Shown here in pieces: positions 1-333 of a stretch of 333 bases of DNA; position 1 is the first letter of the stretch; every line of letters begins with the position of its first letter. Made by a program: the position numbers and the translations under genes. This stretch comes from Escherichia coli (GTDB lineage Bacteria > Pseudomonadota > Gammaproteobacteria > Enterobacterales > Enterobacteriaceae): the NCBI RefSeq assembly GCF_003334385.1, contig NZ_QOWN01000200.1; one strand, written 5' to 3'. A model generated the notes under the pieces. The model had not been told where the DNA came from and made no database searches. It saw only the letters and a list, made by a program, of their open reading frames with translations.

Positions 1-212
1 CCGGCACGCCAGACCGCAGTCACACCGTGTATCACGGGATTACCGTCCGTGTCCGTCAGCGGGGTTTTGTTCACCAGGATACTCTGCAGTCCCTTCACCG
101 GGCCTTCTATCGGTCCCTCACCAATGGCATCAATCACACTCATCATCTGCGTGGATTTGAGATTATCCTTCGCCTCACGCGGTGTGTGCCCCTTGCCGCC
201 CCCTTTACCCAC
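1..212 (-). CDS. J: Phage host-specificity / central tail fibre (tail tip) protein, lambda gpJ-like; N-terminal 70 codons only, 3' end runs beyond the window
   Basis: Minus-strand translation from GTG at +212..210 gives MGKGGGKGHTPREAKDNLKSTQMMSVIDAIGEGPIEGPVKGLQSILVNKTPLTDTDGNPVIHGVTAVWRA with no stop before the window edge. This closely matches my memory of the lambda gpJ N-terminus (MGKGSSKGHTPREAKDNLKSTQLLSVIDAISEGPIEGPVDGLKSVLLNSTPVLDTEGN...). A purine-rich Shine-Dalgarno sequence lies just upstream. GC is about 59% by hand count. Start choice is by homology; the same frame stays open further upstream but contains no better start. Confidence 0.85.
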   Translation of the reverse strand, partial: MGKGGGKGHTPREAKDNLKSTQMMSVIDAIGEGPIEGPVKGLQSILVNKTPLTDTDGNPVIHGVTAVWRA

Positions 213-287: not shown

Positions 288-333
288 ATCATGACTGAAT
301 AAAAATTCTGAATATCTTCACATTTTCACAAAC

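Follow-up and report, generated by a model that had tools for sequence, protein, structure and literature searches.

Start of a lambda-J-type tail-tip gene and a conserved terminator-like and CRP-like block beside the sRNA locus pasB in an Escherichia coli lambdoid tail module

The window analysed in this report is a stretch of 333 nucleotides from the Escherichia coli contig NZ_QOWN01000200.1 (assembly GCF_003334385.1). Its bases 1–212, read on the minus strand, almost certainly represent the translation start (GTG at 212–210) and the first 70 codons of a lambda-J-type gene of an Escherichia lambdoid phage or prophage (Table 1). The homology to J is far beyond chance, every test applicable to 70 residues assigns the fragment to the lambda gpJ family, and there is no evidence that contradicts the reading as a J start. 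This start is already known: hundreds of phage and E. coli records carry its annotation, and a dedicated curated NCBI model covers it. It serves here only as a label of the locus, putting the window where genes I and J of a lambdoid tail module meet. The modest added value comes from the flanking 120 bases, by which the published sRNA PasB is shown to occupy a conserved cassette between the tail genes I and J.

Table 1. Features of the 333-nucleotide window, with the evidence on which each of them is based.
Feature	Position	Strand	Basis
5' end of lambda-J-family tail-tip (host-specificity) gene	1–212	minus	translation, homology, annotated starts in relatives
Shine-Dalgarno region AGGAGAGGGGGA	217–228	minus	read from sequence; function inferred
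CAGACAT repeat in the untranslated J leader, one full and one partial unit	228–240	minus	copy comparison
Intrinsic-terminator-like element	256–287	minus (J strand)	terminator scan, RNA fold, 80-copy comparison
CRP-like palindrome TCTGA-ATATCT-TCACA	307–322		motif match, conservation; candidate site
-35 hexamer TTCACA	325–330	plus	promoter scan of L001, identical to window here

The GTG codon is followed by codons 2–70 and two further bases, and the frame is open up to the left edge of the window. Minus-strand translation from base 212 to base 3 yields V(M)GKGGGKGHTPREAKDNLKSTQMMSVIDAIGEGPIEGPVKGLQSILVNKTPLTDTDGNPVIHGVTAVWRA, which corresponds to 70 codons without a stop. BLASTP aligns residues 1–70 of this product with residues 1–70 of lambda gpJ without gaps (52 of 70 identities, E 3e-34). 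The same residues correspond to profile positions 1–70 of 1163 in the NCBIfam model NF049904 lambda_TipJ ('phage attachment tail tip protein J'), with an E value of 4.5e-39 and 133.7 bits. Additionally, the product matches PHROG 31 ('central tail fiber J') and PHROG 1727 (central tail fibre J / host specificity) as well as the solved lambda gpJ chains in the PDB, 8iyk_J and 9e7m (E about 2e-28). The gpJ-family N-terminus named in the original prediction, which had been made from the bare sequence, is borne out by these matches. Similarity to gpJ is also found in phage databases, as was proposed there as a check: tblastn retrieved a relative of the 70-residue segment in 422 phage records, 32 of which are at least 99% identical in protein.

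Identity to the start of lambda J is 74% at the amino-acid level and 73% at the nucleotide level. Over the same 70 residues, the identity to J of PhiR12_2 and of several Stx2a-converting phages is 100%. The gene is thus a homologue and not lambda itself, as had been supposed. The three replacements relative to lambda J that had been named (GGG for GSS, QMM for QLL and AIGEGP for AISEGP) are all present in the alignment. The stated divergence after residue 40 is found as well, with five non-synonymous codons in 2–39 compared with 13 of 31 in 40–70. Nucleotide differences to lambda at codon positions 1, 2 and 3 number 15, 6 and 35, respectively. Codons 2–22 contain nine synonymous and two non-synonymous changes, and the 60 nt 5' of the start have an identity of 27%, which is the random level. 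Since codons 2–22 differ mostly by synonymous changes and the upstream identity is random, protein-level constraint begins exactly at the GTG codon. At window position 158 (codon 19 of J on the minus strand), GCC (Ala) is present compared with GCG in four of four aligned relatives. This is a private synonymous SNP.

Two plus-strand frames, at 27–302 (91 aa) and 49–234 (61 aa), are contained in the mechanical ORF list, and either one might be considered the real gene, the J-like frame then being incidental. The probability of this reading is negligible. Both frames are antisense to the constrained J frame, whose substitutions show third-position bias, and neither matches a PHROG family at E values up to 0.1. 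Furthermore, the 91-aa ORF extends through the leader, which varies by indels, and through the hairpin. A plus-strand terminator-like hit at 46–63 (five pairs, 8-nt loop) is located inside the J coding sequence and was taken as chance.

Start codons were compared in 80 independent copies, comprising 75 IMG/VR copies pulled with an invariant 20-mer (codons 9–15) and the annotated loci. The start triplet is GTG in 45 copies and ATG in 34; in one copy it is shifted by an upstream 1-nt deletion. Among the 24 resolvable GTG alleles, 19 lead into a full-length ORF. The GTG start is a common allele and not an anomaly. A gpJ coding sequence is annotated from the equivalent of window base 212 in PV340550 (PhiR12_2, L001), NZ_CP024127 and NZ_CP148357 (loci L001, L002 and L003), in agreement with the GTG start assigned in the original prediction. 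Most likely, as judged from comparative evidence and annotation, GTG 212–210 is used as the start. The purine-rich AGGAGAGGGGGA at -16 to -5, 4 nt 5' of the GTG, would serve its translation. It is kept in GTG-type leaders, whereas ATG-type alleles have another purine-rich leader, GGTAAGAGGTGATGTA.

The CAGACAT unit of the leader occurs once, twice or three times among the copies (7-nt steps), and 1-nt indels are present nearby. Its copy number varies among otherwise near-identical prophages, which alters the distance from the terminator to the ribosome-binding site. In the mechanical ORF list the J frame is taken further, up to an in-frame TTG at 257–255. Translation from this codon would give the protein an N-terminal extension of 15 residues and turn the GTG into an internal valine, for which there is hardly any probability. 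The 7-nt repeat units and 1-nt indels between TTG and GTG would break the frame among the copies. Thus, the leader is non-coding and the TTG is excluded as a start. Furthermore, the TTG is placed inside the T-run of the terminator and lacks a Shine-Dalgarno sequence, the leader of ATG-type alleles is unrelated and the similarity to lambda ends exactly at the GTG/ATG. The annotations in PV340550, NZ_CP024127 and NZ_CP148357 all use the GTG. A TTG start is effectively refuted by these observations, and the GTG is retained.

In the collections searched, no record is identical to the window over its 333 bases; the best is 99.4% identical, with 2 differences. By megablast, the 333 bases match 150 phage records and 1888 of 5426 complete E. 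coli genomes. E. coli genomes with any match contain a median of 2 and up to 11 copies. The gene order in PV340550, NZ_CP024127 and NZ_CP148357 is H-M-L-K-I-J-lom-stf. As this order is found in records 97–99% identical to the window, the assignment to a lambdoid tail module is supported, and the lom/stf genes anticipated downstream of J are present in the annotated near-identical relatives. K and I upstream and lom and stf downstream are found in all relatives examined; the window itself carries only sequence of the I-J gap beside J. Lambda gpJ (PDB entries 8IYK, 8K35 and 9E7M; NF049904) is collinear with the product from residue 1, and the position after K/I and before lom/stf is the same in the nearest relatives of the window. 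The closest counterparts are the gpJ genes of Stx-converting and other lambdoid E. coli phages and prophages (PhiR12_2 PV340550, Stx2a LC7278xx, E2348/69 PP6), whose DNA is 94–99% identical over the 333 bases and whose first 70 residues are up to 100% identical. They share leader, hairpin and CRP-like block with the window; prophage PP6 of E2348/69 differs by an ATG start and another leader after the hairpin.

The 70 residues encoded in the window correspond, by comparison with lambda, to the assembly end of J. The end responsible for receptor binding and host range is thus outside the window, as stated in the original prediction. The segment is assigned to the HDII-insertion hub domain on the basis of PMC10721106 and would comprise strands β1–β4 of this domain, as in lambda. 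Its earlier description as the tail-tip-attachment region is correct in that this end builds J into the tail tip. The wording is loose, the segment being the HDII-insertion hub end. This end of J probably joins gpL and gpI during assembly. By homology to lambda, the complete protein, of about 1130–1160 residues, would form a trimer. Its C-terminal domain, beyond the window, would bind an outer-membrane receptor and in this way define the host range, a role known from lambda. During lytic growth, J would be read within a long late transcript, if transcription proceeds as in lambda. Compared by description with the baseplate hub protein pb3 of phage T5, the lambda-type hub is split over several genes.

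In L002, the relative with 99.4% identity, J comprises 1159 aa and scores 2374 bits against NF049904 (curated cut-off 1950). Pfam assigns the domains FNIII-A_GpJ, Phage-tail_3, Ig_J, Ig_J_second, Phage_Tail_Tip and Ig_GpJ_C (PF12421, C-terminal receptor-binding) to this protein. A different case would be a J gene that persists in a cryptic prophage as a truncated or decayed remnant, with an intact N-terminus but no functional tail-tip protein. This is quite unlikely for the window. Among 50 related copies, namely those with an ORF end inside the fetched DNA, nine fall short of 900 aa and 14 fall short of 1100 aa, whereas 36 reach at least 1100 aa. The neighbourhood of L002 contains a frameshifted tape-measure gene, and many of the multiple copies of E. 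coli (median 2, up to 11 per matched genome) are likely defective. On the other hand, the 70 codons of the window are free of defects and their protein is 100% identical to J of PhiR12_2 and the Stx2a-converting phages. In the PhiR12_2 record, which names K-12 MG1655 as host, J has just 954 aa (L001 6122–8986) and is followed by a separate ORF of 163 aa ('tail fiber protein'). J of this viable phage may be split or rearranged.

A hairpin is found on the J strand, 52 nt ahead of the J start. It extends from 287 to 264 and consists of a 10-bp stem (ACAGGCATCC/GGGTGCCTGT) with six G-C pairs and a 4-nt loop, TCCG. The tail TGTTTTTT follows at 263–256. Folding of the RNA gives -20.9 kcal/mol with a z-score of -4.4, and none of 200 shuffles is as stable. 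Bases 256–287 combine a G+C-rich stem-loop with a U-run, as is characteristic of a Rho-independent terminator. The hairpin is kept in 80 of 80 copies, in 13 distinct versions. Three changes are seen in the stem, all of them single-sided, and two of these keep a G-U pair in the J-strand RNA. Compensatory double changes in the stem were not found among the 80 copies; covariation support is absent because the stem is nearly invariant. The element is conserved and is regarded as a predicted terminator.

A hairpin with a T-run ahead of J is common to lambda and the window. Lambda, however, has an ATG start, a different leader and an I-J gap of 60 bp, whereas the window type has a GTG start and a gap of about 250 bp (about 240–255 bp in relatives), of which bases 213–333 are a part. 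In lambda, the polymerase that transcribes the late operon is modified by Q and reads through terminators. Since Q-modified polymerase ignores terminators, the hairpin should not hinder J in lytic growth. In the lysogen, it would stop unmodified transcription from entering J. A promoter scan detected no J-strand promoter from which a short sRNA with its 3' end at the hairpin could arise. Neither the hairpin sequence nor that of the PasB terminator has a match in the supplements of Tree et al. 2014 or in the searched literature, and the accessible part of the EPEC RIL-seq tables of PMC8550237 lists no J-strand RNA from the I-J gap.

PasB is an Hfq-dependent prophage sRNA of EPEC E2348/69 (PMC8550237; bioRxiv 10.64898/2026.05.13.724894). 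It has a length of 83 nt and is found on the minus strand of NC_011601 from 1466343 to 1466261, between E2348C_1436 and E2348C_1437 (PMC8550237 Table S6). These coordinates map into the I-J gap, on the strand opposite to J (L004 1844–1762). The PasB northern probe AATCCCGCAGTGATCGCGGAGCT (PMC8550237 Table S6) is present verbatim on the J-coding strand by the gene I stop in both L001 and L004. PasB is antisense to the tail operon (L001 5873–6000, L004 1757–1880), and the stop codon of gene I directly adjoins the PasB terminator. According to the preprint (10.64898/2026.05.13.724894), PasB sits in an operon of phage structural genes and gives 1,158 hits in a set of 1,362 genomes. PasB itself is absent from the window, as the equivalent region is beyond base 333. 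The window thus contains promoter-side DNA only, including the -35 hexamer of the promoter facing pasB.

Near-identical relatives of the window carry different PasB alleles. Clearly different sRNA bodies (e.g. L018-type and L024-type) are found behind one conserved block of promoter, CRP-like site and hairpin. The presence of different sRNA bodies behind the same block suggests a cassette with an exchanged payload. In 48 variants of the gap, the major-allele frequency is 0.89–1.0 in the block at ~257–327, 0.62–0.92 in the PasB body and ~0.75 at the 3' end of gene I.

The -35 hexamer is part of a near-consensus sigma-70 promoter (TTCACA-16 nt-TATAAT, 11/12) that heads to gene I and PasB, with its -10 hexamer beyond the window. 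In the scan of L001 it is the strongest promoter pointing at PasB. There it occupies positions 6009–5982, and the predicted start is ~15 nt 5' of the published, coverage-based 5' end of PasB. PasB may be made as a ~98-nt transcript that is then trimmed, or it may originate from a weaker downstream promoter.

Read on the J strand, the palindrome adjacent to this promoter is AAATGTGA-AGATAT-TCAGA (TGTGA-N6-TCAGA). It agrees with TGTGA-N6-TCACA at nine of ten core positions and has an AAA flank in addition. One CRP motif with at most one mismatch is present in the window compared with 0.01 expected; among 200 shuffles, two contain such a match. Conservation covers both half-sites in 47 of 48 distinct variants of the gap, while the 6-nt spacer varies. 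Activating CRP sites are centred at positions such as -41.5 or -61.5. The centre of the candidate site is about -44.5 from the start predicted for the TATAAT promoter and about -59.5 from the published, approximate 5' end of PasB, both of which are non-canonical positions. The CRP-like site may control pasB.

Spf is repressed by cAMP-CRP. Its level is about 5-fold higher in DMEM, whereas, conversely, overnight static LB cultures contain more PasB than exponential DMEM cultures. This expression pattern fits CRP activation of PasB and, equally well, stationary-phase control. The literature searched contains no mention of CRP, cAMP or a promoter for PasB.

Other candidates for the gap were rejected. 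Rfam at permissive thresholds found nothing in the window. A hit to Hrs1 in the whole gap of a relative (18.8 bits, gathering score 56.4) and hits to archaeal snoRNA models inside the J coding region of a relative are sub-threshold noise. Two ORFs of 22 aa (MKINVKELFLLLGQKNTNAAKL) and 28 aa, located in the gap outside the window and antisense to PasB, were considered as type-I-toxin-like or moron peptides. They were rejected, since close relatives either lack the ATG or have a changed frame. AgvB, AsxR and other EcOnc sRNAs were discarded as occupants of the I-J gap, as the literature puts them at the pR' moron site.

It is tentatively proposed that the conserved CRP-like operator, together with the terminator beside the PasB promoter, is a genuine CRP-dependent control region. 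Bases 257–330, the best-conserved part of the I-J gap, run from the hairpin across the CRP-like palindrome to the -35 hexamer. They could likewise be a module through which PasB and its allelic variants are controlled in response to the host, a possible reading that is nonetheless somewhat doubtful. In such a module, cAMP-CRP would switch the antisense sRNA on when glucose is absent, and in the lysogen the terminator would keep non-Q read-through across pasB away from J, lom and stf. The block would act as a fixed 'socket' behind which sRNA bodies are exchanged, at least three unrelated-looking bodies sharing it.

The conserved CRP-like operator/terminator block may be new, as it is undescribed as far as the searched literature goes. 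The CRP-like site may place the neighbouring sRNA under catabolite control. If the operator is real, it would link a prophage sRNA of over a thousand pathogenic E. coli genomes to the carbon status of the host.
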